This document shows, one piece after another, positions 767 through 49,200 of a stretch of DNA of 64,000 bases. Numbering within the stretch: the first letter of the stretch is position 1; each line of letters opens with the position of its first letter. The DNA comes from a virus. A program made the translations under genes and the position numbers. The notes under the pieces were generated by a model. That model was not told where the DNA came from. It did no database searches and was given only the letters and a program-made list of their open reading frames with translations. The stretch is from the IMG/VR virus record IMGVR_UViG_3300007760_001418, positions 1 through 64,000 of that record; one strand, 5' to 3'.

Positions 767-1001
767 CCTGGTGGTTCGCGCGTACGCGTATCACGCATTC
801 ATTCCTGGCATTATCGTCGACGAAGAATATAATGAGATCTCAGATGTAGATCATGATTTAGCCTACACAGAACATAATTTTACCGTAGCCTGGTCAGATA
901 ATAATACATCTCGTGAAATGGATGTAGAGTTAGATTATTTAGAAGATGCCCTTGAGGCAATGCAAGAACTCATGGAAGAGGATGAACAGAATGAAAGTTG
1001 A
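753..1001 (+). CDS. small SH3/KOW-like protein, acidic tail
   Basis: MKIGDLVVR..PGIIV..VAWSD; 14-nt overlap. Confidence 0.75.
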   Translation: MKIGDLVVRAYAYHAFIPGIIVDEEYNEISDVDHDLAYTEHNFTVAWSDNNTSREMDVELDYLEDALEAMQELMEEDEQNES

Positions 1002-1431
1002 ATTACAGAATGAATTGTTTGAAAAGTATCCAAAGATTTTTCGGCAAAAAGATTTACCTATGCAAGAGACATGCATGTGCTGGGGTATTGAGACTGGTGA
1101 TGGGTGGTATAATATCATTGATATGTTATGTCTTCAAATTGAATGGCATACTGCACATAACCTAAAGAAGGATGAAGATTCAGACCTGGTTCAAGTTGAA
1201 GCTGTACAGGTTAAGGAAAAGTATGGTACCCTGAGGTTCTATTATAATGGAGGAAATGAATTCATCCATGGGCTTGTGTCAATGGCTGAGGGTATGTCTG
1301 GGCGTACGTGCGAGGAGTGCGGTGCACCTGGAACGCAAAATAATACCGGCTGGATCAAGACACAATGTGTACCATGTAGAGATAAACAAGGTCTGCGCTG
1401 GGAAAAGGGTACGCAGGGTGGAGCTGGCTAG
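991..1431 (+). CDS. conserved phage hypothetical protein with C-terminal CxxC...CxxC zinc ribbon
   Basis: ATG 991 after GAGGA; GDGWYNII, QVKEKYGTLRFY, TCEECG..QCVPC motifs typical of a widespread phage family. Confidence 0.75.
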   Translation: MKVELQNELFEKYPKIFRQKDLPMQETCMCWGIETGDGWYNIIDMLCLQIEWHTAHNLKKDEDSDLVQVEAVQVKEKYGTLRFYYNGGNEFIHGLVSMAEGMSGRTCEECGAPGTQNNTGWIKTQCVPCRDKQGLRWEKGTQGGAG

Positions 1432-1718: not shown

Positions 1719-1834
1719 GTTTATAACTAGTATTATCCTACGATAATCGTGTGACAGGAGTATAACAAAGTTTGCATTATTACTTATACAGGCATGATAT
1801 ACTGGATATACTTAGTTCACGTTAGGAAATAAAC

Positions 1835-1845
1835 GTTCTTTGAAA
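1835..1845 (+). promoter_or_regulatory. boxA-like antitermination element upstream of large ncRNA
   Basis: GTTCTTTGAAA resembles rrn boxA (TGCTCTTTAACA); lies after ATACTTA motif at 1808. Confidence 0.45.
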
Positions 1846-1850
1846 TTCTA

Positions 1851-2469
1851 TGCGACCCCGGTTCTCGGGTCCTAAAATCCAGGTGGAATTACTGGCTCCT
1901 GGATATCAACGGAAGTTGATAGTAGAGAAAACCTCGATTGGGAAGGTGCTGTTCTTACGGCATGCCGCCCTACTAAGAGAGGGGATGAGTAAAGGGGAGT
2001 GACATCCCTGAAAATCATCCAGTGATCTAAAGTAAGAGCCCTCTTGTCACAGAGGGAGTGCTGCTGAAGGTATCCGCGGACTTGTAGATTCATCGTGGAA
2101 ACGGGATAAGGGCAACCCAGACTACTCTGAAAGGAGTTGAAAAAGTCTTGGGAAGGGGGGTTAAAATCCTCTAGAATCTGACTGTCGTTGGCAGAAGCCT
2201 CTCTGATGAAACCGGCAACGGTTTTATCGTCCCGAAAGGGGTTATGTGGACTTTCTCCCAAGGATCGGAAGCATGACGCGCAAAAGCGGGGGGAAGTGTA
2301 CAGCTTACCCAACTGAGCGCAGAATGTCAATGACAGTAGAACGTGCTGTTCCGTGGTTTTTACGAGCCAAGAACAGGGAGGAATCTTGTGAACGGTTTTA
2401 CTTGCCGGTGTGTTCACATCTAACCCCAAGAGGGGGACAGGCTCAAAAGGCTTGATGGTCATGAGAACG
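1851..2469 (+). ncRNA. large structured ncRNA candidate (GOLLD/ROOL-like class)
   Basis: no credible ORF; successive hairpins with GNRA loops (1904-1921 GGAA, 2205-2228 GCAA, 2231-2240 GAAA) and further stems; bounded by boxA-like site and terminator. Confidence 0.75.
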
Positions 2470-2502
2470 AGAAGCCCTGGAATGCTGGGCTTCTTTTTTT
2501 TT
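2470..2502 (+). terminator. Rho-independent terminator
   Basis: AGAAGCCC...GGGCTTCT followed by T-run. Confidence 0.8.
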
Positions 2503-2527
2503 CGAAATAAAAGGAGTGATAACAATC

Positions 2528-2770
2528 ATGCAAACGTCTACTAATACAAAGTATTTTGTTGCTGCATTTGCGGCTGTTGCATTATTCTTTGCCGGCTATA
2601 CCTATTTTGGTTCCGACACTGATGCAACTGACAATACGGCAGCTACGGCAACTATCACTGCGCCAGCCTCAAATTATATTGAGAATGCGCAGCCAGCAGT
2701 ACAGACTGGGCCCACCAATGTCGCACCCGCGAATGGTGAGGTTGAAGCTGATGCCAGCACAACAAAGTAA
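2528..2770 (+). CDS. membrane-anchored Ala/Thr-rich hypothetical protein
   Basis: AAGGAG SD; N-terminal TM helix, low-complexity tail. Confidence 0.65.
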   Translation: MQTSTNTKYFVAAFAAVALFFAGYTYFGSDTDATDNTAATATITAPASNYIENAQPAVQTGPTNVAPANGEVEADASTTK

Positions 2771-2799
2771 TCTAACGTAGTTACATAGATTTCGATTCG

Positions 2800-2830
2800 A
2801 AAAGGGGAGGGCTTAGGCCTTCCCCTTTTC
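2800..2830. terminator. bidirectional intrinsic terminator
   Basis: AAAAGGGGAGGGC-TTAG-GCCTTCCCCTTTT between convergent genes. Confidence 0.8.
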
Positions 2831-2832
2831 TT

Positions 2833-3183
2833 TTACATGAGCGTGCATTCACAGACTTCATATGCCATTAGTCCATAACCAGCTATTTTCCAACACTCTT
2901 TTTTCTGTGTTACGATAAGCTCTTCTTCGACTATATGATAGATGCCTGGCTCTTCATATGTGAATGGGCCACCCCAATAAATACCCCATTCATTATCAAC
3001 TTCTTCATAGATGAATAGTTCTTCTGCTTCATGGGCCATAAAACATATGTTGTATCCCCATGCATCGATTTCCCACCACTTATTTTCAAATGCTGATCTA
3101 TCAAATAGTGGGTCAGGTTCTGGTGCGCAGGAAATCAGTGCGGCCAGTAACAGGATTCGTCTCAATATTTGTTCCGGGAACAA
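2833..3183 (-). CDS. putative lipoprotein
   Basis: LLLAALISC lipobox-like N-terminus; ATACTTA motif upstream. Confidence 0.6.
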   Translation of the reverse strand: MFPEQILRRILLLAALISCAPEPDPLFDRSAFENKWWEIDAWGYNICFMAHEAEELFIYEEVDNEWGIYWGGPFTYEEPGIYHIVEEELIVTQKKECWKIAGYGLMAYEVCECTLM

Positions 3184-3592: not shown

Positions 3593-3713
3593 GTGTTGCT
3601 AATAACTTAACTCCATATTTATAAGCGTATGCCCATGCGTGAAAACCTTGGGCAGTTGTTTTGTTTTAGTTAAGATAGTCAGCTGCAAACACTTTACTAA
3701 AAGGAGACAACTC

Positions 3714-4583
3714 ATGGCAAAACATGGAAACTGGTTTACACGAATGATCGGTGCCGTAGGCATTGGTCAATTTGAAGAAGAAACCATCGCAAGTGCAAAA
3801 GATCGCACTGAAATTAAAGAGCTAATTAAGAATCTCTCCCCCGCGGAAGGGGTTGATGTGAAGGAATTAAAAGATGACCTTCAAAACTATTTAGACAAGA
3901 ATCTTAAAATATTAGACCAGTCAATGGCAGATATTTCAAAAAGAATTTCTGAAATGGCAGAAGAAATTGAATCAGCTGTAAAGATGGCTGATGAAGCTCT
4001 TGATTCACTTGAAGAATTAGAAGAAGATGATGCGGCCGGACCCCCTGGGCCACAAGGGCCCCAAGGGCTACAGGGTATTCAGGGTGTTCCCGGACCACAA
4101 GGAAATGACGGCGCTCAAGGACCAGCTGGTGACATTGTTGATCTGATTAACGATAATGGTGATGGGTCAATAACGCTCAGTGCTAGTAACGGTGACCAGA
4201 TCCGAATTGCTAGAATTGGTGGGACTCGCGGCCCGCGGGGTCATCAAGGTATCGACGGACCAGTAGGCCCTGAGGGACCTCAAGGTGAGCCAGGTCTCCA
4301 AGGCCCCCCAGGAAATTCCTGGAACGAACAGCGTGTTAAGATAATTGAAAACCATGTAGCTGCGTTATGGACTGAAGCTGCCGGAATAAAGTCATCAGTG
4401 GATAGTGAAATTAAAGATCTTCAAGATCGCATGGTTGAGTGTTGCCCAGAAGAACCTGAACCAAATCCAGGCTGTTGGAAACATAAGTGTTGCGACACCC
4501 CGGCCGCTGGTCAATATGCAGAATGCGATAGGCACGGCGGCAGTCCGGACGGTCATAAAACATACTGGGACCCGAACTGTTAG
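3714..4583 (+). CDS. collagen-like protein with coiled coil and Cys-rich C-terminus
   Basis: AAGGAG SD; two Gly-X-Y tracts (GPPGPQGPQGLQG..., GPRGHQG...). Confidence 0.85.
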   Translation: MAKHGNWFTRMIGAVGIGQFEEETIASAKDRTEIKELIKNLSPAEGVDVKELKDDLQNYLDKNLKILDQSMADISKRISEMAEEIESAVKMADEALDSLEELEEDDAAGPPGPQGPQGLQGIQGVPGPQGNDGAQGPAGDIVDLINDNGDGSITLSASNGDQIRIARIGGTRGPRGHQGIDGPVGPEGPQGEPGLQGPPGNSWNEQRVKIIENHVAALWTEAAGIKSSVDSEIKDLQDRMVECCPEEPEPNPGCWKHKCCDTPAAGQYAECDRHGGSPDGHKTYWDPNC

Positions 4584-5801: not shown

Positions 5802-5848
5802 CTATATGTTGGTGGGGAATGGATCCTCACCACATGGGAAGAAGCACA

Positions 5849-6076
5849 GTGAAGAAGGGTGACATCGTTTTTTTGGATGACTACTACTACGGTGACGTCA
5901 TAACTGGGATTGTACTTACCACCGGACGAGGCAAGCTCGAAGGGCACTATGAGATCATGACTGCCTGCCGAACGACCGAAATACCATATACTTTCTGGAC
6001 ATACCGGGAAGATCTGATGTCCATGGATGAGTGGGAAGAGTGGGGCAAGGAAGAGTACGGAGAGTTGCTGCGATGA
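5849..6076 (+). CDS. small SH3/KOW-like protein
   Basis: GTG: MKKGDIVFL..TGIVL. Confidence 0.65.
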   Translation: MKKGDIVFLDDYYYGDVITGIVLTTGRGKLEGHYEIMTACRTTEIPYTFWTYREDLMSMDEWEEWGKEEYGELLR

Positions 6077-25084: not shown

Positions 25085-25298
25085 GCAAGAGCGTAGGTTA
25101 TTGAGATCTGTTGGTGGAGGTTATGCTAGTAGAAGAAATACCGGTAACCTATTACCAGAAGAAACAACCATTGCCGGACAATTGGTTGCGCAACAACTTC
25201 TTAAGACAACAACATGTAGAGGCAGTGAATGGCTCGAACTAACTAACGATGGCCAAGCAAGACTATATTTCTTAAATGGTCTTGAACTTGGGGTGTAG
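25074..25298 (+). CDS. hypothetical protein
   Basis: GGAG SD before MDIEQ; stop lies in the 5' end of the tRNA. Confidence 0.45.
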   Translation: MDIEQERRLLRSVGGGYASRRNTGNLLPEETTIAGQLVAQQLLKTTTCRGSEWLELTNDGQARLYFLNGLELGV

Positions 25299-25361
25299 CA
25301 TAATTGGCAGTGCACTCGGCTGTTAACCGAGCGGTTGGTGGTTCGAGTCCACCCGCCCCAG
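25289..25361 (+). tRNA. tRNA-Asn (GTT), CCA not encoded
   Basis: acceptor TGGGGTG/CGCCCCA, anticodon arm CTCGG-CTGTTAA-CCGAG, T-arm GGTGG-TTCGAGT-CCACC. Confidence 0.95.
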
Positions 25362-25378
25362 GGGCTTATAAAGGAAAA

Positions 25379-30209: not shown

Positions 30210-30297
30210 TTCACGTTCGACCAATTGCTGGGTACTTTTATATTTAGATAATGATACTGGATTTACAGTACTCTGCTTAATGAGAATAGTTATAAAC

Positions 30298-31482
30298 ATG
30301 TCTGTTTTCAAAGAACATAGAACGTCCGCCGACCGATCAGCTTCTGATCGGGGTCGACATAAGCATAAAATTGAGGAAGCGATTCGTGAGGGGATATATC
30401 ACGTCATTGCTGATGAGTCTATAATTGGGAAAGACGGAACAAAAAAGGTTAGGATACCTGTTCGGGGAATTAAAGAATACCAATTTGTATACGGTGATAA
30501 TGAGCAGAGTAAAAAAGTAGGAAGCGCAACTGGCAAAAATATTAAGCGTGGTCAGCAGGTTGGTCCATCCCCCCAGAAAAAAGATAAAGGTGAGGGTAAC
30601 CAGCCAGGAAACGAAAAGGGTGTTGAATACTATGAGGTAGAGATTACCCTAGAAGAACTAGCATATTATCTATTTGAAAGCCTGGAATTGCCAGAGCTTG
30701 AAAAAAAGCAAATGAAAAAAATCATGTCTGAAAAAATGAAGAGGCATGGTTATCGTGAGTTTGGAATCCGGCCGCGGCTGGACAAAAAGAAAACACTTAA
30801 AAAGAAGCTACGTAGAAAGGCAGCTGCCAAAAGAGCCGGAACGTTTGCAGACGGTGAAGATGATCGGTTCCCTTTTCATACTGATGATCTAAAATATAAG
30901 CATATAAAAAATACAATCCAGGAAACTAGCAATGCCGTTGTATTTTTTGTAATGGACATATCTGGTTCAATGACAACACAGAAGAAATTTCTTGCAAGAA
31001 GCTTCTACTTTCTACTGTACCAATTCTTAAATTACCGATATGAAAATGTTGATCTGGTATTTGTAGCCCATGACACACAGGCATATGAGGTTACAGAAGA
31101 ACAATTTTTCAAGCGTGGCGCTGGCGGGGGCACCTTGGCCTCTTCTTCAATTGAAATGGTTTTGGATATTATTAATGAAAGATACCCAACAGACGTTTGG
31201 AACATATATACATTTCACTGTTCTGATGGGGACAACTGGCCAGAAGATATGGACAACCTTATGTTCTGCTCAGGTAAACTAAAAGAGCTAACCCAGTTAT
31301 ATTGTTATTGTGAGATTGAACCAAATGAAGAGCGCATGCGGTGGCTGATGGATGAAGGTTCAAAAATATCAAATGCATACGTCGGATTGAATGATGATAA
31401 GTTTAAGATTGTTAAAATTCAGGAGCCAGGTGATATTTGGCCGGCTTTCCAAGATCTGTTTGGGGGGAAACTGGGGTTATAA
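30298..31482 (+). CDS. yeaH: YeaH/YhbH (DUF444) vWA-like protein
   Basis: DRGRH..KI, AVVFFVMDISGSM, GGT, YTFHCSDGDNW. Confidence 0.9.
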   Translation: MSVFKEHRTSADRSASDRGRHKHKIEEAIREGIYHVIADESIIGKDGTKKVRIPVRGIKEYQFVYGDNEQSKKVGSATGKNIKRGQQVGPSPQKKDKGEGNQPGNEKGVEYYEVEITLEELAYYLFESLELPELEKKQMKKIMSEKMKRHGYREFGIRPRLDKKKTLKKKLRRKAAAKRAGTFADGEDDRFPFHTDDLKYKHIKNTIQETSNAVVFFVMDISGSMTTQKKFLARSFYFLLYQFLNYRYENVDLVFVAHDTQAYEVTEEQFFKRGAGGGTLASSSIEMVLDIINERYPTDVWNIYTFHCSDGDNWPEDMDNLMFCSGKLKELTQLYCYCEIEPNEERMRWLMDEGSKISNAYVGLNDDKFKIVKIQEPGDIWPAFQDLFGGKLGL

Positions 31483-32786
31483 TGTCTGATTGGAACTTTG
31501 ATTTATTAGAAGAGTGGGACAAGAAAATACATGACCTTGCATTGAGCTTTGGCCTAGACTGGTATCCTATTATCTACGAGGTTTGCGACTACTATCAGAT
31601 GATAGGTCATATGTCATATCATGGGTTGCCCAGTCATTATTGCCATTGGTCATTTGGAAAGTCATTTGAAAGAACACACCAGCTTTATCAGGCAGGGATG
31701 GAAGGGTTACCTTATGAGCTAATCATTAACTCTGATCCGTCTATCGCATATCTGATGAAAGAAAATCCGGCATATATGCAAATTCTTATTATGTGCCACT
31801 GTGTTGGGCACTCTGATTTCTTTAAGAATAATAAGACATTTGAACATACTCGTCCAGAGACGACATGTACCAGGTTTCGAAATGCTAGAAAAAGAATTCA
31901 AGGATATATTGAAGATCCAAGTATAGGTGTCGACAAGGTTGAAAGAATCTTAGATGCATCACATGCAATAAAGTACCAGATCGACCGAAACTTGAAAAAA
32001 CGACCATCCCATAAAGATCTAAAAGAAGAATATACTCGCCGGGTTAAAGAGGATGATCGGTATGAAAATTTTGATATTGAAAAAATCCCTTTAGAGCCAG
32101 ACTATAATATACTTGGATTTATTATTGAGCACTCTAAAAGCCTCAAGGACTGGGAGAGGGACATTGTTGAAATCGTGCATAATGAATCTTTGTATTTTCT
32201 GCCACAGATTAAATCAAAGATTATGAATGAGGGATGGGCATCATTCTGGCACTATAGATTAATGCACGAGTTGGACCTTCCACAAGAATACCATATACCA
32301 TTCATTAAAAGTCATAACCAGGTCATCAGGCCTCATATAGGGTCTCTAAACCCATACCATGTGGGGTTCTATATGTTCCAGAAGATTGAAGAGAGGTTTG
32401 GGCTTGATCAATGTTTCCTTGCGAGGGAAATAGGTCATGACGAGTCGTTTCTACGGGAATACTTAACAGAAGAGGATTGCAGAGAGCTTAATTTGTTTTC
32501 ATATTCAAAGAAGAAAAGAGAAATTTCTACAATTGATGAAATATCCGATGGCGAGGGGTGGAAAAAAATCAAGAATGACCTTATCAAAAATGTAGGTGCT
32601 GGTACAATTCCCAAGATATATGTAGAATCTATAGAGGATGGAAACGTGTTAATACTGCAACATGAACATGATGGAAGAGATCTTGAACTAAATTATGCTG
32701 ATGAGGTTGTAAAACACGTTGGCACTTTGTGGGGAGACGTCGTAAAACTTCTTACTGTAGTAGAGGAAGAACCGTGGGAAATTTGA
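31482..32786 (+). CDS. spoVR: SpoVR/YcgB family protein
   Basis: HWSFGKSF, YELIINSDP, HCVGHSDFFKNN, KIMNEGWASFWH, NPYHVG. Confidence 0.92.
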   Translation: MSDWNFDLLEEWDKKIHDLALSFGLDWYPIIYEVCDYYQMIGHMSYHGLPSHYCHWSFGKSFERTHQLYQAGMEGLPYELIINSDPSIAYLMKENPAYMQILIMCHCVGHSDFFKNNKTFEHTRPETTCTRFRNARKRIQGYIEDPSIGVDKVERILDASHAIKYQIDRNLKKRPSHKDLKEEYTRRVKEDDRYENFDIEKIPLEPDYNILGFIIEHSKSLKDWERDIVEIVHNESLYFLPQIKSKIMNEGWASFWHYRLMHELDLPQEYHIPFIKSHNQVIRPHIGSLNPYHVGFYMFQKIEERFGLDQCFLAREIGHDESFLREYLTEEDCRELNLFSYSKKKREISTIDEISDGEGWKKIKNDLIKNVGAGTIPKIYVESIEDGNVLILQHEHDGRDLELNYADEVVKHVGTLWGDVVKLLTVVEEEPWEI

Positions 32787-32828
32787 TGACAACGATATTT
32801 ATTAGTACCCAATGTAGGGAGATTTGCA

Positions 32829-34757
32829 ATGACAAGTAAGAAAAAATTCTTAGACTTGATCCAAAAGCAGCGTACAAAGCCAAAACCAGAAAAGTTTCAA
32901 GGTACTTTTCTAGAATATCTTGATATTGTTAGTAAGGATCCAGATGTTACTAAGTTAGCACATAAGAGATTATATGATACAATTCTTGATAGTGGCACAG
33001 GCCAAATGTCAGATAGCGAAAGAAATCATAAGTTGTTTGATGGTGAGAAGATCACAGTATATGATTATTTTGATGATGAGTTCTTTGGTGTAGAAAGAAT
33101 AATTGCAAAGATCATGAGGTTTTTGAAATCTGCATCCCTTAGGGGCGAAGAGAGTCGACAGATCCTATTACTAATGGGCCCTGTTGGCGCAGGAAAATCC
33201 GCACTTACAGAACATATTAAAAAGGCCCTGGAGGGTAAAACATATTACTGTCTTGATGGTGACCCTCAGGGGGGTGAACCTCTCCACCTTATTCCTCGTT
33301 CATTAAGAAAAGAATTCGAAAAAATTCTAGGTACAAAAATTGAGGGTGACCTTAGTCCTGTGGCTAGACATAGATTGCTTGAAGAGTATGAGGGAACATA
33401 TGAAAATTTTCCTGTCATTGAGAAAACGTTTTCGCAGCGGGCCCGTCGAGGAGTAGCATCTGTTCCACCAATGGATGCCAATAGCCAGGACGTCTCAGTA
33501 CTAATCGGGTCTGAAGATATTTCTAAATTAGATCTTTATCCGGAAGATGACCCTAGGGTATTATCATTGAATGGTGCATTTAACGTTGGTAACCGCGGTA
33601 TCGTGGAACTAATTGAGGTTTTCAAAAATGAAATTGAATTCCTTCACACAGTTATTACAGCAACACAGGAAAAGCGGATTCCGTCCCCTGGTAAAAATGC
33701 AATGATTTACTTTGATGGTGTTATTATTGCCCACTGTAATGAGGCTGAGTGGAATAGGTTTCGAGCAGAACATACTAACGAGGCAATCCTTGATCGTGTC
33801 GTGAAGATCAATGTTCCTTACGTCCTTGAGCTCAATAAAGAAATGATGATCTATGAAAAGATACTATCTCGGTCAGACTTTGACGCACATATCGCGCCGC
33901 ATACGATAAAGATAGCATCAATGTTTTCAGTCATGTCCCGTCTTAAGGCATCACAAAAATGTGATCTTCTTACAAAGATGAAAATCTATAATGGTGAAGA
34001 TGTAATTGAAAAGGGCCGAGTTAAGAAAATTGATATCCAAGACCTTCGTGAGGAATCAAATAAAGAAGGTATGGAAGGAATATCCACCAGATTTATTATG
34101 AAGTCAATTGATAATGCATTATCTGATGCTGGTGAAAAGAATATGATAACGCCTGTCTCAGTTATGAAAACTCTAACGAAACAAACAAAAGAACAGATTA
34201 TTAAAGAAGATGAACGGGAACAGTATCTGGAAATTATGCAAGGTGTCCGGGAAGAATACCTTAAGATTCTTGAGACAGAAATTGCAAAAGCTTTTGTTAC
34301 TGCTTATGAAGAGCAAGCACAGGCATTATTTGATACATACCTCGACAATGCAGAAGCATTTACAACTAGACAAAAACTAAAAGATCGAATCACCTCTGAA
34401 GAACGTGAGCCTGATGAAGAGTTTATGAGATCTATTGAAGAACAAATTGGCATCATCGGTTCTAGTAGGGATGGATTCCGAAGTGACGTTACTGCTTATA
34501 TGTTTGCTAAGATGCGGCGGAAAGAAACTGTCGACTTTAGAAGTTATGAGCCGCTCAAGGAAGCTATTGAGAGTTACTTGATCTCTAGTGTCAAGGACAT
34601 GGCCAGAATCGTAACAAAATCACAGGTTCGAGATGATGATCAGCAGGAAAAATATTCTGATATGGTTCAGGTCATGATCGATGAGTATGGATATACAGCT
34701 ACCTCTGCAGAAGAAGTACTTCGGTATGCATCCAATAATCTATGGCGTGATGGATAA
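32829..34757 (+). CDS. prkA: PrkA/YeaG AAA+ serine kinase
   Basis: LMGPVGAGKS, GAFNVGNRGIVELIEVFK, HCNEAEW, EGMEGISTRF. Confidence 0.92.
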   Translation: MTSKKKFLDLIQKQRTKPKPEKFQGTFLEYLDIVSKDPDVTKLAHKRLYDTILDSGTGQMSDSERNHKLFDGEKITVYDYFDDEFFGVERIIAKIMRFLKSASLRGEESRQILLLMGPVGAGKSALTEHIKKALEGKTYYCLDGDPQGGEPLHLIPRSLRKEFEKILGTKIEGDLSPVARHRLLEEYEGTYENFPVIEKTFSQRARRGVASVPPMDANSQDVSVLIGSEDISKLDLYPEDDPRVLSLNGAFNVGNRGIVELIEVFKNEIEFLHTVITATQEKRIPSPGKNAMIYFDGVIIAHCNEAEWNRFRAEHTNEAILDRVVKINVPYVLELNKEMMIYEKILSRSDFDAHIAPHTIKIASMFSVMSRLKASQKCDLLTKMKIYNGEDVIEKGRVKKIDIQDLREESNKEGMEGISTRFIMKSIDNALSDAGEKNMITPVSVMKTLTKQTKEQIIKEDEREQYLEIMQGVREEYLKILETEIAKAFVTAYEEQAQALFDTYLDNAEAFTTRQKLKDRITSEEREPDEEFMRSIEEQIGIIGSSRDGFRSDVTAYMFAKMRRKETVDFRSYEPLKEAIESYLISSVKDMARIVTKSQVRDDDQQEKYSDMVQVMIDEYGYTATSAEEVLRYASNNLWRDG

Positions 34758-37721: not shown

Positions 37722-38086
37722 GGGGGCGAAACGGTCTCGACGGGGTGGCAAAGGGTGAAAGTGCAAGTAACCAACGGTAACACATGGTTTGATAGTGTTG
37801 CAAACTATAATTGCTAACGATAACGTTGCATACGAATACGCACTAGCTGCGTAAACGCGGGGTTGCTGATAGACCTTGTTACCCAACATCAGATAAGCGG
37901 CTTGGCTCCGCCGAAATAAACTAGGTCAAAAATGGTTACCCTATTTGTAATAGGTGGGTTCTGATGCTTAATAGGAATGGTGGTTTTTTGAGATACTTTG
38001 TCAGTTTAGAGAAACTGTCTAAACTTGTGAACGACTTAAATTTGGACCTATTTCGGACGCGGGTTCGACTCCCGCCGCCTCCACCA
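37722..38086 (+). ncRNA. ssrA: tmRNA (one-piece), tag ANDNVAYEYALAA
   Basis: 5' GGGGGCG..TCGACGG, 3' GCGGGTTCGACTCCCGCCGCCTCCACCA; tag frame 37813-37854. Confidence 0.96.
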
Positions 38087-38258
38087 TTGGTTGGGTAATA
38101 TGGGTAGCAGCATAAAGGGAATGCTTCCTAAAATAAAAAGGGCAGCATCTTCCCACCATGAACCAAGAAAAGGAAATACAGGGCAAAAAAATATAGTTGA
38201 ACCTACATATATAGAGGAATCCGTTAATCCGGATCATGAAACGATAGAGGAAAAAATT

Positions 38259-39353
38259 ATGAGTACTATTGATAATAAAGATAATGAGCCTGCAGATGAT
38301 ACATACATCAACCCTGCAGAAGATAGTTGGGACTTTATCGGAGGAATGGACGATGATGTTGCAGCCGATGAGCGTCTTTTACCGGACAACAAAGCACCAT
38401 CTGCATTAAATTGTGGGTTCATAGGTGTTGGTGGAGGCGGAGGAAAGTTAGCTAAAGCTTTTCTTGATCTTGGGTTCACTAAAACTGTTGTTGTTAATAC
38501 CACGGAGAAAGATCTTCCTGGTGGGATTGATAAGGAACATGTCGTTATTATCCCCGGAGCAGATGGCGTTGGTAAGGATGTAAGTCTTGGAAAAAAGCTG
38601 CTTAAAGAAAACAGTACGCTTGTCGAAGATGCATGCCGATCCAGGCTGGGATCTGTTGAGTGGCTATTTGTACTAGCCGGCGGAGGTGGTGGTACCGGAT
38701 CTGCATGTGCTGCACTAAATGATTCTCTATCCAGATACCTTAAGTCTGTAGAGTCAAAGGGCAGGGTTGTGTATATCATTACAAAACCTACAGCACAGGA
38801 ATTACTTAATCCTACAATTGCAACAAATTATGCAGAAATATCAAAAGACTTAAAGGATACACCTCATATTGTAATTGATAATGAACGCCAATTACAATTG
38901 TTACGAGGCAAGGTTGGTATGTTGAACATGTTCCCAGCTGCAAACTCAACATTTGCAAAACTCTTCCACCAGGTACTACGCCTCGCAAGTGAAAGTTCTT
39001 CTATCTCAGCATTTGATTCGAATGATTTAGAGAGATGTTTGAGTACAGCTGGAAGGATATTCCTTGGCAGTACTGTTATAAGGGACACAGGAGGACGAGA
39101 TTTAGGCGCACAGGTCCTTCAAGGTTGTGTTAAGGGGTCACCATGTGCTGGACCAAAAGGGTCTCCAGAGACCGGTGTGTTACTATTGTTGGTAACGTCT
39201 CTCATGGCATCGGATCCGGATATCAGTAAGCGTCTAGAGTCAGCAACGGCATATGTCGGAGGGCGTGCAAATACGCTTTTTTCGGGTGTGTACGTTAAAG
39301 ATTCAATTCCTGGACTCATTGCACTTACCATGTTCGGTGGTATGAAAGACTAA
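38259..39353 (+). CDS. tubulin/FtsZ-superfamily GTPase (PhuZ/TubZ/CetZ-like)
   Basis: FIGVGGGGGK, VNT, GADGVGKD, AGGGGGTGS, IDNE, FDSND; GAGG SD before MSTIDN. Confidence 0.88.
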   Translation: MSTIDNKDNEPADDTYINPAEDSWDFIGGMDDDVAADERLLPDNKAPSALNCGFIGVGGGGGKLAKAFLDLGFTKTVVVNTTEKDLPGGIDKEHVVIIPGADGVGKDVSLGKKLLKENSTLVEDACRSRLGSVEWLFVLAGGGGGTGSACAALNDSLSRYLKSVESKGRVVYIITKPTAQELLNPTIATNYAEISKDLKDTPHIVIDNERQLQLLRGKVGMLNMFPAANSTFAKLFHQVLRLASESSSISAFDSNDLERCLSTAGRIFLGSTVIRDTGGRDLGAQVLQGCVKGSPCAGPKGSPETGVLLLLVTSLMASDPDISKRLESATAYVGGRANTLFSGVYVKDSIPGLIALTMFGGMKD

Positions 39354-42018: not shown

Positions 42019-45000
42019 ATGGGTAGCCCAAAAGATTTTCTAGCAAAACAGATTAGAACTACTCAAGTCATGGCCTCTGGCTCATTTGGCAATGAGTACC
42101 CAGATCTTCTAATTTATAGAACCTGGCCTCATTATGATGGTGCACTTCCTCCACATATTGAAGCTGGTATTACAGGTACCGCTGGAGAACTAAGTATCGG
42201 TAAAGATGTTTGGTTTTATGTTGATGCAGCATCAGGGCCTAATCATCCTATTGGGCAAACCGGTGACAGCGGAACAGTAAGAGAAAATAATTCAGTTGTT
42301 CTATTTGCTGGTGATGTGGTGGTGTCTGGTACCCTGTGGGCTGAAAGACAAGTTCTAGAGGTTACCACCATCGCTTCTGATAAGTTTGAGGGCGACATGA
42401 TCCTGTCTGGCAATTTATTTGCCAAGGATCAGTATTCAGGTTCAGGTGCAACTTTTATAGCACCTGGAGCAAATCAGTGGGTTGACTTTCAAAGTCTAGG
42501 TGGAACAAGCTTATTTGTCATTGACTCTGTTAATGAACGAGTAGGTATCCATACCCCTGACCCATTGTTTGACCTTCACATCGTAGATGATAGAGAGGGG
42601 AATGCAAGGTTTGCAATCACCCAATATGCTGATGATAGTCCAGGAGACGGGCCTGACATAATGCTTCAAAGATCTAGGGGTGATCTTTCTGCTGGTGCAT
42701 CTGGTGTCGTCGATGGTGATAGGTTGGGCTCAATATACTTCCAAGGTGCAGCTGGGCCCGCAGGGATATTGGGGAATGATCAGATTGCGGCAGCAGTCTC
42801 GGCTGTGGTTCAAGGTAACCCAACAATAGATGATGGTGGTGTACCAGCTGCTATAGGTTGGCGAACTGGTGATGGAACGGAAACAACACTTAAATGGCGC
42901 CTGGCAAGTTCTGCCGATGGCCGGATTGGCATCGGCGGCCATAATGCAACGAAAGATGGTGATGCACAACTCCATATTATATGGTCATCAGCCACCGGTG
43001 CGGGTGTTACCAGTGCCTTTGACCCGGGCGCGACCAGCATGTTGGTCGGTGATGGGCCGCTAAAGATAGAAGGCCTTGAGCTTGACACCACAGCTACCAA
43101 GAACCTTGTTATAAGCGATGATGGTGTGGTCAAATATGGTTATGCAACTATTGGCCCTCCATGTGAGACAACATTATGTGATGGCGATCCTGATAACACT
43201 TATGCTGATGGGCTATTCATGGACTGGACGGAGCTAACCCCTCTTGGTTGTGCCATCGATCGAATGAATGAAGTATTAGGGTCTATGGCACCCCAGCCTG
43301 CACCATTATGTAATTCACTTGATGAAGTTACAACAACAGTCGGTAATCTAGTTAGTTCTGATTTTAGGCCGGCTACGTTATCTGAGTTAACTCATCCGGA
43401 ATGGTTAGGGGGTGGGCAAACTGCACATGGTACTGTAAATGCTATTTCTGAATTTGTAGGACCAGTAGGAATGTTTCCTGGACCCATTATACAGAATGGC
43501 TATTATTCTGCTAATGCCGCGTCAGCTACGTATCCAGATCCAGAAGATCCTCGAGGTGCTACGTCACCTACTGAGCATGAAAGAGATCATCGGTTGGGTG
43601 TATTTTATGGACATGCGACAAACCTGGATGAACGGCCAACATTTAAGTGCATAATGAATTGGAATGATGATCAAGATCCTGCTAGCGGGGCTGCTATCGG
43701 TGCCAATTATCCAACAGGCGCTTTCGGGAGGGGTGACCAGGGTACCTTATCACTATGGGTTAATGGCACGATACAAGCGGAGTTGGTACTAGACGGTGCA
43801 ACGGAGGGCGCAACGTCATCATTAGGGGCAAATGGTGACCTTATATCTGTTGGCACTTTAGAGCCGGCACATTTTGATAATGGCGAAGAGCTTTGTACAT
43901 ATTTTCATAGAGAATCAGGTGAGGTACATATAGGTGGTACGTCAATGAGGCTCGGGTGGAACTGGGCCAGAATACAACATCATGGAACCGATATGGTCGA
44001 TGAAGGAAATGGTATTTTCACAAACTTCATTACATGGATCCTAGATGATCATGCTAATGAACCACAAATTAATCCCCAATCTACCCCGGCCGTAACAGAG
44101 AGTTCATACACATGGTTGTCTGGGGTGAAATACATAAAGACTGGAAATGTTGCGTATTCATACACTATCGATGGTGCATATGAAAACTTTTACTGGCCTA
44201 CCAATGCTTTGGCAGGAAGTTATGCGGTTCAGTGGCATGATGAATCGCCAAATGGTGCAGCATTAACTCTACCGACACCAAAAGATTTGCCTGCAGCCGG
44301 CAGTTACACTGATACTGTTCTAAGTACCGCTATTCAAGATAATGCTGGTACCGCAAACTTATTGGTACCAACATGTAATCTTGTTAATGGCCGTTGGGGA
44401 GATGAAATAGACTTGAGAATTACAGTTCAACACCCATTTGATAATGCAGATATCGGGCCCGATGCTGCTTGGGCCACAACTGCTAGTTGGAATAAGTGTT
44501 TCAAAGAAGAAATTGACAGTGGGTGGAATGATACATTCCTCATATATGATAGTGAATGGGATCATGGTACAGGGTATGCTGCCGAACCTACATGCGAAAG
44601 CACTACTGTAGAACTATTCCGGACTGAATATTGGAGACTCCAGGATAATGATAGTAATGGCTCTGGGACACATATGAATGATTATGATACCCAGAACGAC
44701 GTAACTTCAGCTGTGGGTACTGGTATTCCTGCCAATGCATGGAATTCTCAGATAGCTTTAAGTCCGGTTACCACCGGTCATAAAGGACTTCTTTGTTGCA
44801 AAGGTAGGCTTTCATCTCCGTCAAATACAGATCACGTAGCTGTGACCGATGGAAGGTTTGGCGATGTTAACCACCCAGCTGGAAATATAGATTATGATGG
44901 GGAAAATCACACTAATCATGTAAGATGGTTTTATCGAGCATTTCAAAATCCCCCTAGTGGCGGGTTTGAAGCTAGTTTCTTAATAAATATAGAGACCAAT

Positions 45001-45393
45001 GATGGTGATTCTACAGATATAGTTCCTCGTAATGATGAAGGTAGCAACTACCCTGCTGTCAATGCTGTAACAACAGGTGCCGATGTAGATAAAATGCTGG
45101 TCGAAATAAAACTACCTGATGGTGGGAATGATACAACAGGGTGGATGGACTGTGCTACACAATTTCAACCCGGGCAATTTAATGATGGTGATGGATGCTT
45201 AGGGCCGGCGTATACCTCTCCTGCTAGTTGTACAGATTCACATCGTATATGTAATACTTCACCCGGTGAGATTAGAATTTTTCTTGACACTAGAAAAGTA
45301 GCTCCAGGGGAATGGATAGTCGTTCGGTTGTGTACCAGCGAAGGTTGGGTAGGGTCTATCAATAAATTAGAAGTTGACTGGGGTGGGTACTAA
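42019..45393 (+). CDS. large virion structural/tail-fibre-like protein
   Basis: 1124 aa, Gly/Thr/Asp-rich; ERVGIHTPDPLFDLHI fibre repeat; QRSRG..DGDRLGSIYFQG module. Confidence 0.7.
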   Translation: MGSPKDFLAKQIRTTQVMASGSFGNEYPDLLIYRTWPHYDGALPPHIEAGITGTAGELSIGKDVWFYVDAASGPNHPIGQTGDSGTVRENNSVVLFAGDVVVSGTLWAERQVLEVTTIASDKFEGDMILSGNLFAKDQYSGSGATFIAPGANQWVDFQSLGGTSLFVIDSVNERVGIHTPDPLFDLHIVDDREGNARFAITQYADDSPGDGPDIMLQRSRGDLSAGASGVVDGDRLGSIYFQGAAGPAGILGNDQIAAAVSAVVQGNPTIDDGGVPAAIGWRTGDGTETTLKWRLASSADGRIGIGGHNATKDGDAQLHIIWSSATGAGVTSAFDPGATSMLVGDGPLKIEGLELDTTATKNLVISDDGVVKYGYATIGPPCETTLCDGDPDNTYADGLFMDWTELTPLGCAIDRMNEVLGSMAPQPAPLCNSLDEVTTTVGNLVSSDFRPATLSELTHPEWLGGGQTAHGTVNAISEFVGPVGMFPGPIIQNGYYSANAASATYPDPEDPRGATSPTEHERDHRLGVFYGHATNLDERPTFKCIMNWNDDQDPASGAAIGANYPTGAFGRGDQGTLSLWVNGTIQAELVLDGATEGATSSLGANGDLISVGTLEPAHFDNGEELCTYFHRESGEVHIGGTSMRLGWNWARIQHHGTDMVDEGNGIFTNFITWILDDHANEPQINPQSTPAVTESSYTWLSGVKYIKTGNVAYSYTIDGAYENFYWPTNALAGSYAVQWHDESPNGAALTLPTPKDLPAAGSYTDTVLSTAIQDNAGTANLLVPTCNLVNGRWGDEIDLRITVQHPFDNADIGPDAAWATTASWNKCFKEEIDSGWNDTFLIYDSEWDHGTGYAAEPTCESTTVELFRTEYWRLQDNDSNGSGTHMNDYDTQNDVTSAVGTGIPANAWNSQIALSPVTTGHKGLLCCKGRLSSPSNTDHVAVTDGRFGDVNHPAGNIDYDGENHTNHVRWFYRAFQNPPSGGFEASFLINIETNDGDSTDIVPRNDEGSNYPAVNAVTTGADVDKMLVEIKLPDGGNDTTGWMDCATQFQPGQFNDGDGCLGPAYTSPASCTDSHRICNTSPGEIRIFLDTRKVAPGEWIVVRLCTSEGWVGSINKLEVDWGGY

Positions 45394-45414
45394 TATGCAT
45401 GTGGAGACTAAATA

Positions 45415-48400
45415 ATGGCTAATATGCTAAATGAAACAAGGCTTCAAATTGTATTGAAAAAGCTTGTAGGACGAGCTACAACTGTAGCTAAGTCTGATGA
45501 GGGTTACCTTAATGAAAAGTACCCTACAAACATTACAACATCCGCAACAACTAGTTTTGCAGAGGCACTTCCAAACGTTCCACTTCGGCCCGGGCCGACG
45601 AATGGTACCGCTGGTATTCAAGGAACCCCTGGTACTATTACTAATAGTGCTGGTGCAGAATGTAATGATGGCGGTCCCGGAATTATGTATACAGATGGAG
45701 TTGTAGAATGTGTACAGCTTGATTTTATCCCAATTGATACCAGTGTATACCCAGGCCCGGATGGCTCTAATTTACAGTATCATGCATATAAAGCCAGGTT
45801 ACCAAGTGATTACGATACCGATAGTAATAATCCAAGAGCTGGTACAACAGGGTGGAATGGTGAAGACTATCTTTATGAAACACAGGGCCGGGTTCAGTGT
45901 ATACCACCTATATTTGGATATGATGATCCGACCGGCGGAGTTTATGCACCTGGCGACGGCACAGACAAAAGAATATACCAAATAAACGTTGAGCATGCGA
46001 GCGGGCCTATAGAAAATGCCGACCTTCGTAACTGGTATTTTGATTATTATAATGGTATCTTTTTTCAAGAACGATCTTATGAAGATGACGCCGGTAATGT
46101 ATTACCTGAGCCTACAACCGGTGAGGTGTTACTTTACATCGGCGACTTTGTAGATGAAGCACTCCAGGTTGCCATGGAAATGCCGGCAGCTGACTCAGAC
46201 TGGTGGGAAGCCGGCACGTCAGGACCATTCGATACTCATCTAATTACAACATCATCAGTAGCTATCGGCACAGGTCACACAGGCATTACTGCATACGATA
46301 CTGGTAAGGATACATTCTTCTTTGTCGGTGGCACAGCTGGTAGTCGAGCAGAATGGCTAGCTGGTACGGGCGGTGCTCCTGGTGTTGCCCACTTCGGCGG
46401 GGACCTGGCACTCAGTGGAAACCTTGCAGCAGGAAGTACTGCCACAGTCTCACCTAATGTATTGGTTGCACCCTTCGCGGAAGATGAGCCACAGTTTGCA
46501 CACATAATGACTGGGTCATACATCGATATCGGAAACTTTATCGAGGGTGGTGTTAGTGGTGGGTATGCATGCCCTGCTGATCCCACATTCGGTGGAGTAA
46601 TAGCCTCGACGGAACTCTGCTATTATATTTTTGATAATGTTGAAGTTCCAGATGAAATTAATGGTGGGTATAGATCATTACAGACTGGAGACGGAATCGG
46701 TGCATGGTTAATTGATTCAACCGGCGCGCAGCTATATTGCGGATATCACGACGGAACAAGCACACCTTTTGGAAGCCTGCCGACAGAGACAATTGTCGTT
46801 CACGGCTATGATTCCAATACTCCGGGGACTAATGAATATTTTGTGTCTGGAGAAGTTCCTCAGTTTACGATTTATGACAACGTCGGTGGGAAGTGTTGGC
46901 CGGCTGAAGTTTGTGGAGCTCCTTGTGGTTTAACAGCTGCCGGTGGGTTCGCCGCCAATACGAGTAATTCACATACTACCTTACGCGGCACCGGTGTGGG
47001 CTATGATGAAGCGGGCTTTGTAGCCATCCGGCAAATCTGTCAACTAGAAAACCAACTCAGGTTCTCAGATAATAGTGTTGGTATTTTTACTGGTGGAGAA
47101 GAACCAGGCCTGTTGAACGGTGCCTTTGTCAGAGTCATTGAAGCTAGGGATGGTTCTGCAGGTGATATAGAGCTGTTAGCTGGAAAAAATAAGATCAATA
47201 CGCCCCCTGACCACCTCGGAGGTACTAGCACAAATAGGGCTGGTAATATCAACATGCTTTCTGGTGATGGAGTCTGGGAGGGTGGTGATATCAATATCAT
47301 TGCCGGCGGTTCAGGCGGGACATGGACACTAGAGGGATCAGAAACTCCGGCTAGAGAGGGTGGCCCTTTCGGTGGCGATATCAGTATATTTGCAGGAGTA
47401 GGTGCATATGCTGGTAATATTGCCATTGCTGGTGGGAAGTGTAATGGTTACTCATCAAGCAATCCAAATTATTTTGGTGGAGAAGTTACACAAAAGAGAT
47501 CTGGTGATGTATACATCGATGGTGGGAATACTGAAAGTGGTGAAAGCAAATTCCGAGCCAGTGTATTAATCAATACAGTCAAGGATCCGGGGGAAGGACC
47601 TAACTTTGGCCCGAACGGCGAGGGATGGTGCAATAGTAGGTTTGCAGAGTGGACAACAAATCAAATAGATGTTGCTGGAAATGATGTAACATTCGTCTGT
47701 AACCAAAAAGCAACTAGGCTGGCAGCGATGATGGCACCGAGTACCTCTCTTAATAAAATCTTAACAGCATGTGATTATCAAAATAATGTAGCACCTGGGG
47801 GTAGTTGGTCAGATGAAGCATTAGAGGGCCCATTTCGAATAAGGTACTCATATGCCGGGGCTGGTTCACAATACCCAACACCAACCGGATGGTCTTTACC
47901 TCCTGCCAACGATTTATGTTGGCTTATTGAATGGGGAATGATTACAGTTACTACAACGGTACCAGCCGGAGAGCAATGGGAACTAAGAATAACGAAATTT
48001 GATCAAGGGTATGGTGGTGTTACTGGAGACACAACAATCAAAGGGTTGGCAGATGCACTCTTTGATATAGCACAACTAAATAACCCAGGCCTACCGAATC
48101 CCAAATGGAGAATATCTGTCTATGGGTCGCCGACGACCCAGTATGTACCGCCCCCTCTAGTAATTCCAATTTCTTTAACTTTCGATCCCAGCATAGGGAG
48201 TAACAACACAGCAGGTACATCATTAGATTCTGGGGAGAATGGGTTTAGAGTAAGTAGTTTTCCAGATCCTGCTGATGAACTATATACGGATTCTAGGCGA
48301 GGCCTGGGTGTAGGACAACCTAACCCAGCCGCTACAATCCATATAACTGAAAATGGTAAATGGAAAGACCACCGGCCACAGTGCCCTACTGAATTCAGTT

Positions 48401-49167: not shown

Positions 49168-49200
49168 TGACAACAATTATTTCTTATCGGAGATTAACTA

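Follow-up and report, generated by a model that had tools for sequence, protein, structure and literature searches.

Results

The locus and the element

We analyzed a 64,000-nt stretch of viral DNA (positions 1 to 64,000 of IMG/VR record IMGVR_UViG_3300007760_001418; hereafter the window) and identified, at 1835-2504 on the + strand, what we take with good confidence to be a stand-alone gene for a stable, structured non-coding RNA (ncRNA) of ~650 nt that belongs to a new family carried by large marine phages and would work as RNA alone in the way of GOLLD and ROOL. The source record is an 87.8-kb virus fragment with an estimated completeness of 24%. Among its gene products are PhoH, a GroEL-like protein, an HNH endonuclease, a tRNA, a transfer-messenger RNA (tmRNA) and a helicase whose closest cultured relatives, with 30-34% identity, are those of jumbo phages. 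The segment 1808-2502 is flanked by a 96-aa open reading frame (ORF) at 1428-1718 on the - strand and an 84-aa ORF at 2516-2770 on the + strand. Its G+C content was 0.47-0.49 as compared to 0.37-0.39 just upstream and 0.36-0.44 in most downstream bins. The + strand folded with an energy of -239.6 kcal/mol (z = -4.97), which was equalled by none of 20 shuffled sequences, while the z value of the - strand was -2.07.

Similarity among relatives began abruptly at 1835 and ended after a 3' hairpin, and the sequence upstream of 1835 could not be aligned among them. The element thus bounded is ~650-670 nt long from its leader motif to a T run, and in 52 family members the part running from the first helix (P1) through the 3' hairpin measured 599-645 nt. 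An earlier sequence-only reading had proposed a large phage-borne ncRNA with its own leader and terminator at this place. The covariation, the RNA-library contigs and the lack of a conserved ORF described below all bear this out, and the ATACTTA (1808-1814), the GTTCTTTGAAA (1835-1845) and the terminator (hairpin 2470-2495 with a T run) that it had pointed to are all present.

Base pairing conserved across relatives

We derived the structure on an alignment of 52 homologous sequences (A4) and kept nine homologs that were fetched later as a test set. RNAalifold predicted 145 pairs from the 52 sequences, 87 of which had compensatory double changes. A second consensus contained 179 nested pairs, and 96.4% of its cells could pair as compared to 39.5-45.0% when the partners were slid by 1-3 columns. 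Double changes occurred at 101 of the 179 pairs relative to 26-37 in the slid controls, and the observed values were reached by none of 500 shuffles. When we looked beyond the nested structure for stacks of covarying columns, four pseudoknots or long-range pairings emerged; with these pooled, 99.0% of cells paired (44.8-62.4% when slid) and 129 cells carried double changes (0-15 when slid). In the nine out-of-sample homologs, 87.5-97.5% of the 162 nested pairs counted were kept, as were 19-22 of the 22 in the pseudoknots, while slid partners gave 35-51%. Covariation supports about 35 helices of the fold, which also has four pseudoknots or long-range pairings and three conserved GNRA loops. Two of these loops, in the hairpins at 2204-29 and 2231-40, were kept in 52 of 52 sequences each; the third falls inside an 18-nt search word described below, so that its invariance in A4 is by construction. 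The elements, in window coordinates, are as follows.

1785-1812, + strand: candidate sigma-70-type promoter, TATACA-16 nt-TATACT (9 of 12 matches in a consensus scan; the -10 overlaps ATACTTA)
1835-1845, + strand: boxA-like leader motif GTTCTTTGAAA, where family conservation starts
1850-2497, + strand: structured RNA body, 5' end approximate (covarying fold, RNA-library contigs)
1854-1929, + strand: 5' domain with P1 (1854-58/1867-71), helix 1878-83/1898-1903 (double changes at 6 of 6 pairs) and GGAA-loop hairpin 1904-07/1918-21 (4 of 4)
1862-1866 with 1925-1929, + strand: pseudoknot a, formed by the P1 loop (98.1% paired, 3 of 5 pairs covarying)
1932-1982, + strand: three stacked helices, 1932-35/1979-82, 1938-42/1968-72 and 1948-52/1957-61 (3, 5 and 4 covarying pairs)
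1953-1956 with 1975-1978, + strand: pseudoknot b, formed by a hairpin loop (99.0% paired, 3 of 4 pairs covarying)
1983-2074, + strand: two domains, each a hairpin, one made of 1983-88/2015-20 and 1994-98/2005-09 and the other of 2024-28/2068-72, 2032-36/2061-64 and 2039-44/2051-56 (helix 15 of the consensus: 6 of 6 pairs covarying, 100% paired)
2085-2180, + strand: helix 2085-91/2174-80 enclosing a near-invariant GAAA hairpin/core (2092-2113), a variable hairpin (2114-2146) and hairpin 2155-58/2169-72 (covarying helices)
2147-2153 (CTTGGGA) with 2256-2262 (TCCCAAG), + strand: long-range pairing c (100% paired in the 52 sequences, 2 of 7 pairs covarying)
2181-2337, + strand: central multi-helix domain closed by 2181-87/2331-37 and 2190-93/2325-28, with GCAA hairpin 2204-14/2219-29, GAAA hairpin 2231-33/2238-40, helix 2241-47/2271-77, and helix 2278-81/2317-20, which has inner stems of its own
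2346-2376, + strand: long hairpin 2346-59/2364-76 (12 pairs, 7 covarying)
2384-2466, + strand: 3' domain, in which 2384-90/2460-66 encloses helices 2393-96/2404-07, 2417-20/2454-57 (taken from RNAalifold and the scan for covarying columns), 2424-26/2433-35 and 2438-43/2449-54
2410-2415 (GTGTTC) with 2480-2485 (GAATGC), + strand: pseudoknot d, formed with the 3'-hairpin loop (98.4% paired, 3 of 6 pairs covarying)
2470-2504, + strand: 3' hairpin 2470-77/2488-95 followed by nine T (terminator scan; 5 of 5 pairs covarying)
1872-2525, - strand: 217-aa open frame, not a gene (nothing in Pfam or PHROG; a frame of at least 150 aa in only one of 52 homologs)

Long-range pairing c was also found as CATGGTA/TACCATG and CGTGGTA/TACCACG, and pseudoknot d occurred in six or more sequence versions and was kept in independently fetched sequences as well. 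The variable hairpin at 2114-2146 was short or absent in many relatives (A4 columns 346-381). Near-invariant and partly unpaired segments lay at the helix junctions (2085-2113, 2194-2203, 2291-2303 and 2370-2383), and the single strand after the long hairpin (A4 columns 624-630) read GGGAGAAA in most members and GGGAGGAA in the clade of the window. Eighteen nucleotides of the core at 2092-2113 made up the search pattern, and members that were fetched independently usually differed there by one or two bases, with one (L210) differing by more.

Nine stems had been drawn by eye in the sequence-only reading, which had named covariation as the way to check them. The covariation was strong, including at the pseudoknots and in the nine out-of-sample sequences, and eight of the stems were recovered with its support (1878-83/1898-1903, 1904-21, 1983-88/2015-20, 2039-56, the variable hairpin at ~2114-2149, 2204-29, 2231-40 and 2346-76). 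The ninth, 2387-93/2412-18, was complementary in the window only and was not kept in relatives; helix 2384-2390/2460-2466 and the pseudoknot at 2410-2415 are supported in its place. We also dropped three helices that RNAalifold with ribosum scoring had proposed (1837-41/2377-81, 2075-78/2342-45 and 2109-13/2145-49), each of which had zero double changes. High-scoring column pairs between helices that were already paired, such as 2185-87 with 2462-64, were attributed to shared ancestry and not to contacts.

Coding potential and transcription

Among paired cells of the alignment, G-U made up 15.3% and A-C 0.9%, and we therefore assign the RNA to the + strand. This agrees with the sequence-only reading, in which G-U pairs and GNRA loops had favored that strand. 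The only long frame in the segment is the 217-aa ORF on the - strand, which had no match in Pfam or PHROG, and a frame of at least 150 aa was open in just one of the 52 homologs, the window; with all frames considered, the longest run free of stops had a median of 88.5 codons. The view that no credible ORF is present thus stood, as did the prediction that the 217-aa frame would not be conserved. That the segment codes for a 217-aa protein is next to incredible: the frame is indeed open for 217 codons in the window, but stops occur in every frame in the other 51 of 52 homologs, no Pfam or PHROG family recognizes the product, base pairing and not codons governs the substitutions, and the G-U excess points to the opposite strand.

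Part of the element was found in 20 of the 22 public runs that were listed, and 11 of those 20 are recorded as RNA. We placed contigs from four marine metatranscriptome runs (three studies) on the window, bearing in mind that contigs cannot give strand, level or true ends; the other 16 runs, with small shares, were left aside. These contigs cover 1850-2467, which answers the call for a transcript made in the sequence-only reading. Contigs identical to the window spanned 1850-2000, 2086-2254, 1850-2086, 1859-1983 and 1954-2106, and many other RNA-library contigs were variant alleles of the family. Two of the four runs hold just 21 and 31 million letters. The contigs began at 1850 in two runs of one study and at 1859 in another study, which is a weak hint of a 5' end. 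The flanks (1300-1848 and 2520-3100) had no RNA-library contig, and this missing cover was not counted as evidence.

Distribution of the family

The closest relative (L002) was 84% identical to the window over 699 nt, while the flanking 161-aa protein of the two was only 60% identical. The 3' halves of the two RNAs were nearly identical, with parts of the 5' half much less alike. When the 161-aa protein was used as bait, only 1 of the 80 loci fetched (L002) carried the RNA, and a linkage between the two was rejected. The protein itself (window 946-1431, + strand) has a C-terminal CxxC...CxxC zinc-finger-like end and relatives in 305 viral-contig stretches.

We searched for further homologs with words taken from blocks common to the window and L002, and most of the sequences came through one 18-nt word. 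The loci retrieved with this word matched the family profile in 9 of 10 viral, 75 of 89 metagenome and 1 of 7 species-representative genome cases, with a worst E of 2.6e-82. A second, independent degenerate pattern from another region of the RNA returned 20 loci, all 20 of which were true homologs and 12 of which lay on new viral contigs. In total, 61 distinct full-length sequences (the 52 aligned plus the nine) were obtained from marine viral and metagenome contigs, with pairwise identities of 61-100% (median 73%), and the family was found on 21 viral contigs besides the record of the window. Each of four records searched held one copy. The records with the RNA include two that have terminal repeats and are rated complete (293 kb and 204 kb) and a 317-kb record rated 94% complete; the carriers are large (about 180-350 kb) uncultured marine phages with one RNA copy per genome. 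A blastn search of 50,697 GenBank phage records returned no match at E 1e-5, and only five chance matches of 28-32 nt at E up to 10, so that no cultured phage in this collection carries the RNA.

The 101,404-bp phage contig with the closest homolog (L002/L103) was filed in a metagenome-assembled genome (MAG) labelled Halobacteriovorax, which may be a binning artefact or a hint of the host; we did not use it as a host assignment. This contig accounts for the single true match among the species-representative genomes. No 16S rRNA was found in the two MAGs searched.

Searches against known RNA families

In a scan of the whole window with Rfam 15 at gathering thresholds, nothing matched apart from the tRNA and the tmRNA. 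With the threshold relaxed to E up to 10, the region 1650-2650 gave nothing for GOLLD, ROOL, OLE, HEARO, RNase P or introns, nor for tmRNA, rRNA, raiA or the rest of Rfam 15, except for two chance-level matches, a rimP leader (18.5 bits, over the terminator) and a snoRNA (18 bits, upstream). Ten diverse homolog loci searched at E up to 10 (about 18 bits) likewise gave only tRNAs and chance matches. When five phage records carrying the RNA were searched with the GOLLD model (RF02032), none had a match at the locus, and one chance match of 8.6 bits occurred elsewhere (gathering score 150). The ROOL model (RF03087, gathering score 99.1 bits) also found nothing in the five records, a result that adds little since control genomes were equally silent. 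RF01998, which is a group II intron domain, matched none of the five. The Rfam check proposed in the sequence-only reading was therefore negative for every family that it had listed, and of the two possibilities it had left, a divergent member of a known family or a new class of large phage RNA, the second is supported by these negatives. The RNA family is new, being absent from Rfam 15 and from the GenBank phage records searched, and no description of it was found in the literature that we searched on large marine and phage RNAs. A fragment of it may be listed in a catalogue of viral candidate RNAs (PMC10690425); neither the core word nor two contig numbers occur in the searchable supplements of that paper, three files of which lay outside the search.

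The RNA might instead share ancestry with GOLLD or ROOL and be a diverged member of one of them, which we regard as improbable. Like those RNAs, it is phage-borne, often lies in tRNA islands and has multiple pseudoknots (PMC12286853); its size is near the 574 positions of the ROOL model, it follows tRNA-Met in two members as a marine GOLLD does (PMC12286853), and L002 is near-identical to the window in its 3' half and much less so in parts of the 5' half. On the other hand, neither model matched at E up to 10 in the window or the 10 homolog loci, GOLLD reached 8.6 bits against a required 150 and only away from the locus, the ROOL model was silent in the five records (and in the control genomes too), and 600-650 nt compares with more than 800 nt for many GOLLD RNAs (PMC12286853).

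The 3' end and the neighboring genes

The G+C-rich hairpin at 2470-2495 followed by nine T is an intrinsic terminator in the window. A T-rich tail came after the homologous hairpin in 20 of the 52 members; other members had a separate strong terminator ~10 nt downstream, or a tRNA or a gene directly after it. Since the sequence after the hairpin varies in this way, we consider the hairpin to be primarily structural, with a terminator role as well in the clade of the window.

Same-strand tRNA genes were present within the 1.5-kb flanks at 17 of 51 loci, and at one locus the RNA lay exactly between tRNA-Met and tRNA-Leu. Among five large records, the RNA was inside a tRNA island in three and 5.4 kb and ~7 kb from the nearest tRNA in the other two. 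The proteins encoded nearby were small and of different kinds, an FKBP-like isomerase and a cold-shock-like protein among them.

This variety bears on whether the element could be a long cis-acting leader, that is, a riboswitch or attenuator for the downstream gene at 2516-2770. The gene does have a ribosome-binding site and a start codon within ~20 nt of the T run, and L002 shows the identical arrangement. We nevertheless hold this to be very unlikely: the downstream neighbor changes among small ORFs of several families, tRNAs and a separate terminator, a strong terminator stands between the RNA and the 84-aa gene in the window, and no known riboswitch family matched.

In one clade (L101, L102, L133, L189, L149, L158, L153, L152, L160, L127 and L225), a conserved stretch with a GGAGG-type ribosome site and a start codon follows the 3' hairpin, and in the first three of these the frame continues as a protein like FKBP-type peptidyl-prolyl isomerases.

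The leader motif

The 11-nt leader motif GTTCTTTGAAA matched the boxA consensus GYTCTTTAANA (PMC5725501) at 10 of 11 positions; this consensus is gamma-proteobacterial. All members carried the form G-[T/A/C]-TCTTT-[G/A/T]-A-[A/C]-A or a near variant, with G.TCTTT.A.A in 44 of the 52 and the exact GYTCTTTAANA in six. The spacer to the first helix was 9-16 nt, mostly 10-12. In E. coli, whose rrn boxA is given in Table 1 of PMC2724277, changes at C4 and T6 abolish boxA function, and the consensus varies between bacterial groups (PMC5725501); that survey, by its own account, left non-coding RNAs aside. The boxA-like leader claimed in the sequence-only reading is conserved across the family and close to the published consensus. 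In two members the motif lay 1-10 nt behind a tRNA-Met gene, so that a promoter is unlikely there and the arrangement recalls rrn spacers. Some bacterial groups have a G at position 8 of the rrn boxA, as the window does, although a literature search on this point found nothing.

The motif had a single match on the + strand of the 87.8-kb record and was absent before the tmRNA and tRNA genes. A role as a recurrent phage promoter was rejected, as the motif does not recur before other genes of the record. With respect to the promoter itself, ATACTTA, which had been put forward as a promoter motif, is present and overlaps the -10 hexamer, while the promoter role drew weak support: a -10-like hexamer 10-38 nt upstream of the leader motif was found in 35 of 58 members relative to 25.3 expected from shuffles, a modest enrichment. 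One subclade had TTGTAC-17 nt-TATACT ending 6 nt before the leader motif.

Other genes of the window

A series of small genes (61-85 aa) that overlap one another lies at 5-1001 and 5819-6076 (+ strand); the N-termini are alike, reading M-x-x-GDLV or GDIV, and the genes appear to be a tandem paralog array. In one relative (L098), a gene starting M-H-T-G-D-L-V is placed after the RNA. The 314-aa product of 3639-4583 (+) combines collagen triple-helix repeats with flanks that resemble coiled coils, and it matches phage tail-fibre families. Three adjacent genes at 30280-34757 (+) resemble a bacterial PrkA kinase operon, which is unusual phage cargo. They encode proteins of 400 aa, 449 aa (function unassigned) and 642 aa, the last being a PrkA AAA plus kinase protein (E = 6e-137); the 400-aa protein had an unnamed family as its best match and, more weakly, a PHROG annotated as sporulation protein. 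Three consecutive very large ORFs of 1124, 1250 and 2162 aa occupy 42019-55689 (+), the first two matching no Pfam family and the third a bacterial Ig-like domain only.

The tRNA of the window is a tRNA-Asn (GTT) at 25288-25362. The tmRNA (37722-38086, +; 110.4 bits) has the tag peptide ANDNVAYEYALAA and a TATATT -10-like hexamer upstream. It is directly followed by a 420-aa protein (38091-39353, +) with a weak tubulin/FtsZ GTPase match of 29.4 bits, below the cut-off of 33; if the match is real, this would be a PhuZ-like phage tubulin.

Discussion

How the RNA is made and used can be outlined as a model. We infer from the likeness and placement of the leader motif that it would be a boxA, through which, as in rRNA operons, the polymerase of the host could reach the end of a long transcript that is not translated. 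Host RNA polymerase would start at the sigma-70-type promoter just upstream, and the boxA of the nascent leader (1835-1845) would recruit host NusB/NusE into an rRNA-style elongation complex resistant to Rho. Such a complex would allow the transcript to be completed while it folds, and the leader may be trimmed near 1850. Transcription would stop at the 3' hairpin and T run, and the hairpin loop would then dock on 2410-2415, making the terminator a part of the final fold. During infection the mature RNA may act in trans as a scaffold, a cage or a ribozyme built of RNA only, as GOLLD and ROOL are, with a role probably connected with the tRNA set of the phage.

Several observations weigh against parts of this picture. 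The rows of the alignment are related, so that cell counts overstate the number of independent events, and retrieval through one 18-nt word inflates the apparent invariance at that word. A connection with tRNAs sits poorly with the window, where the nearest tRNA is 22.8 kb away, and with the 34 of 51 loci that have none within the flanks; no constant partner protein was found among the neighbors of the RNA loci. As to the leader, the exact gamma-proteobacterial consensus is confined to six members, the window has a G where the consensus has an A (position 8), and 8 of the 52 members depart from G.TCTTT.A.A, four of them within the T-C-T-T-T core. Searches of five records for phage-encoded NusB and for phage-encoded NusG were negative in all five. 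The window also encodes the tubulin/FtsZ-like candidate (29.4 bits) and two large unassigned proteins, and if the phage used its own polymerase, the host Nus mechanism would not apply.

The window-identical contigs that begin at 1850, downstream of the motif, fit processing and equally well a start site with the motif as a promoter element. A less probable alternative, to which we still give real weight, is that GWTCTTTKAMA is a promoter element or RNase processing signal of this gene and not a Nus boxA. The contig starts at 1850 and 1859 lie 5-14 nt past the motif, as such a signal would have it, and the scarcity of exact boxA sequences is in its favor, as is an apparent likeness of the motif to the -7 element of Bacteroidota promoters. 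However, the invariant G1, T3, C4, T5-T7, A9 and A11 are positions of the boxA consensus, including the C4 and T6 needed in E. coli (PMC5725501). The tRNA 1-10 nt upstream in two members leaves no room for the promoter half of this explanation, the sigma-70-type promoter ending 6 nt before the motif in one subclade puts the motif within the transcript, and the motif is not repeated before other genes of the 87.8-kb record. We retain the boxA as the working assignment for the leader.

The RNA could also be a ribozyme or RNA-processing enzyme, acting for instance on phage tRNA transcripts, and not a cage or scaffold. In favor of this are the long near-invariant and partly unpaired segments at helix junctions, the compact fold with multiple pseudoknots, which is typical of large ribozymes, and the several genomes whose tRNA arrays include the RNA. 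We consider this somewhat unlikely, as RNase P, group I and II introns and other ribozyme families did not match, the data suggest no substrate or chemistry, and many members are not beside tRNAs. A broader proposal, which we offer tentatively, is that the family would be a third independent class of giant phage RNA, an RNA-only multimer or a new ribozyme that marine jumbo phages use together with their tRNA sets, and at the same time the first phage ncRNA gene whose expression borrows the rRNA-type boxA/Nus antitermination and folding complex of the host.

Very few RNAs of such size and complexity are known from bacteria and phages. If a further family, unrelated to GOLLD and ROOL, occupies the same kind of genomic setting, phage-borne and beside tRNA islands, it would provide a comparative test of what giant phage RNAs are for, and it would extend the phenomenon to abundant phages of the ocean. 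With 61 aligned sequences, ~160 supported pairs and four pseudoknots, there is enough material to design constructs for cryo-EM and to build an Rfam family. The boxA-like leader suggests a testable route by which long untranslated phage RNAs could escape Rho termination. The family also marks one lineage of marine jumbo phages not yet in culture, and its RNA was found even in very small metatranscriptomes.

Compared with the boxA leader of rRNA operons, the motif described here is likewise an 11-nt element just upstream of a long, structured, untranslated RNA, it matches GYTCTTTAANA at 10 of 11 positions in the window and exactly in six of the 52 relatives, and in some members it lies behind a tRNA, as does the rrn spacer boxA. 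It differs in belonging to a phage ncRNA gene and not to an rRNA operon or a lambda nut site, and in having G or T at position 8 in most family members.

The RNA shares with GOLLD (RF02032) its nature as a large non-coding RNA, its place in phages and prophages, often near tRNA islands, the lack of a known protein partner, a multi-pseudoknot fold with GNRA and A-minor-type elements, a 3' part more conserved than the 5' part, and an example from the sea downstream of tRNA-Met (PMC12286853). In contrast, the GOLLD covariance model does not match it, its conserved sequence blocks are different, it is 600-650 nt long where GOLLD often exceeds 800 nt, and it has a boxA-like leader, which the accessible portion of PMC12286853 does not mention for GOLLD. 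With ROOL (RF03087), it has in common a similar size (574 positions in the ROOL model), occurrence in phages and prophages near tRNA islands, and a complex fold with several pseudoknots and no protein partner (PMC12286853). It is set apart from ROOL by the unmatched covariance model in the scan of all Rfam and by its occurrence in marine contigs only, whereas ROOL, named for the rumen, is widespread in bacterial prophages (PMC12286853). Both GOLLD and ROOL form RNA-only nanocages whose purpose is unknown, observed as a 14-mer and an octamer, respectively (PMC12286853). We group it with them as a kind and not as a member, because the defining covariance-model matches fail, and by analogy our best guess is that it would be an RNA-only machine like GOLLD and ROOL.

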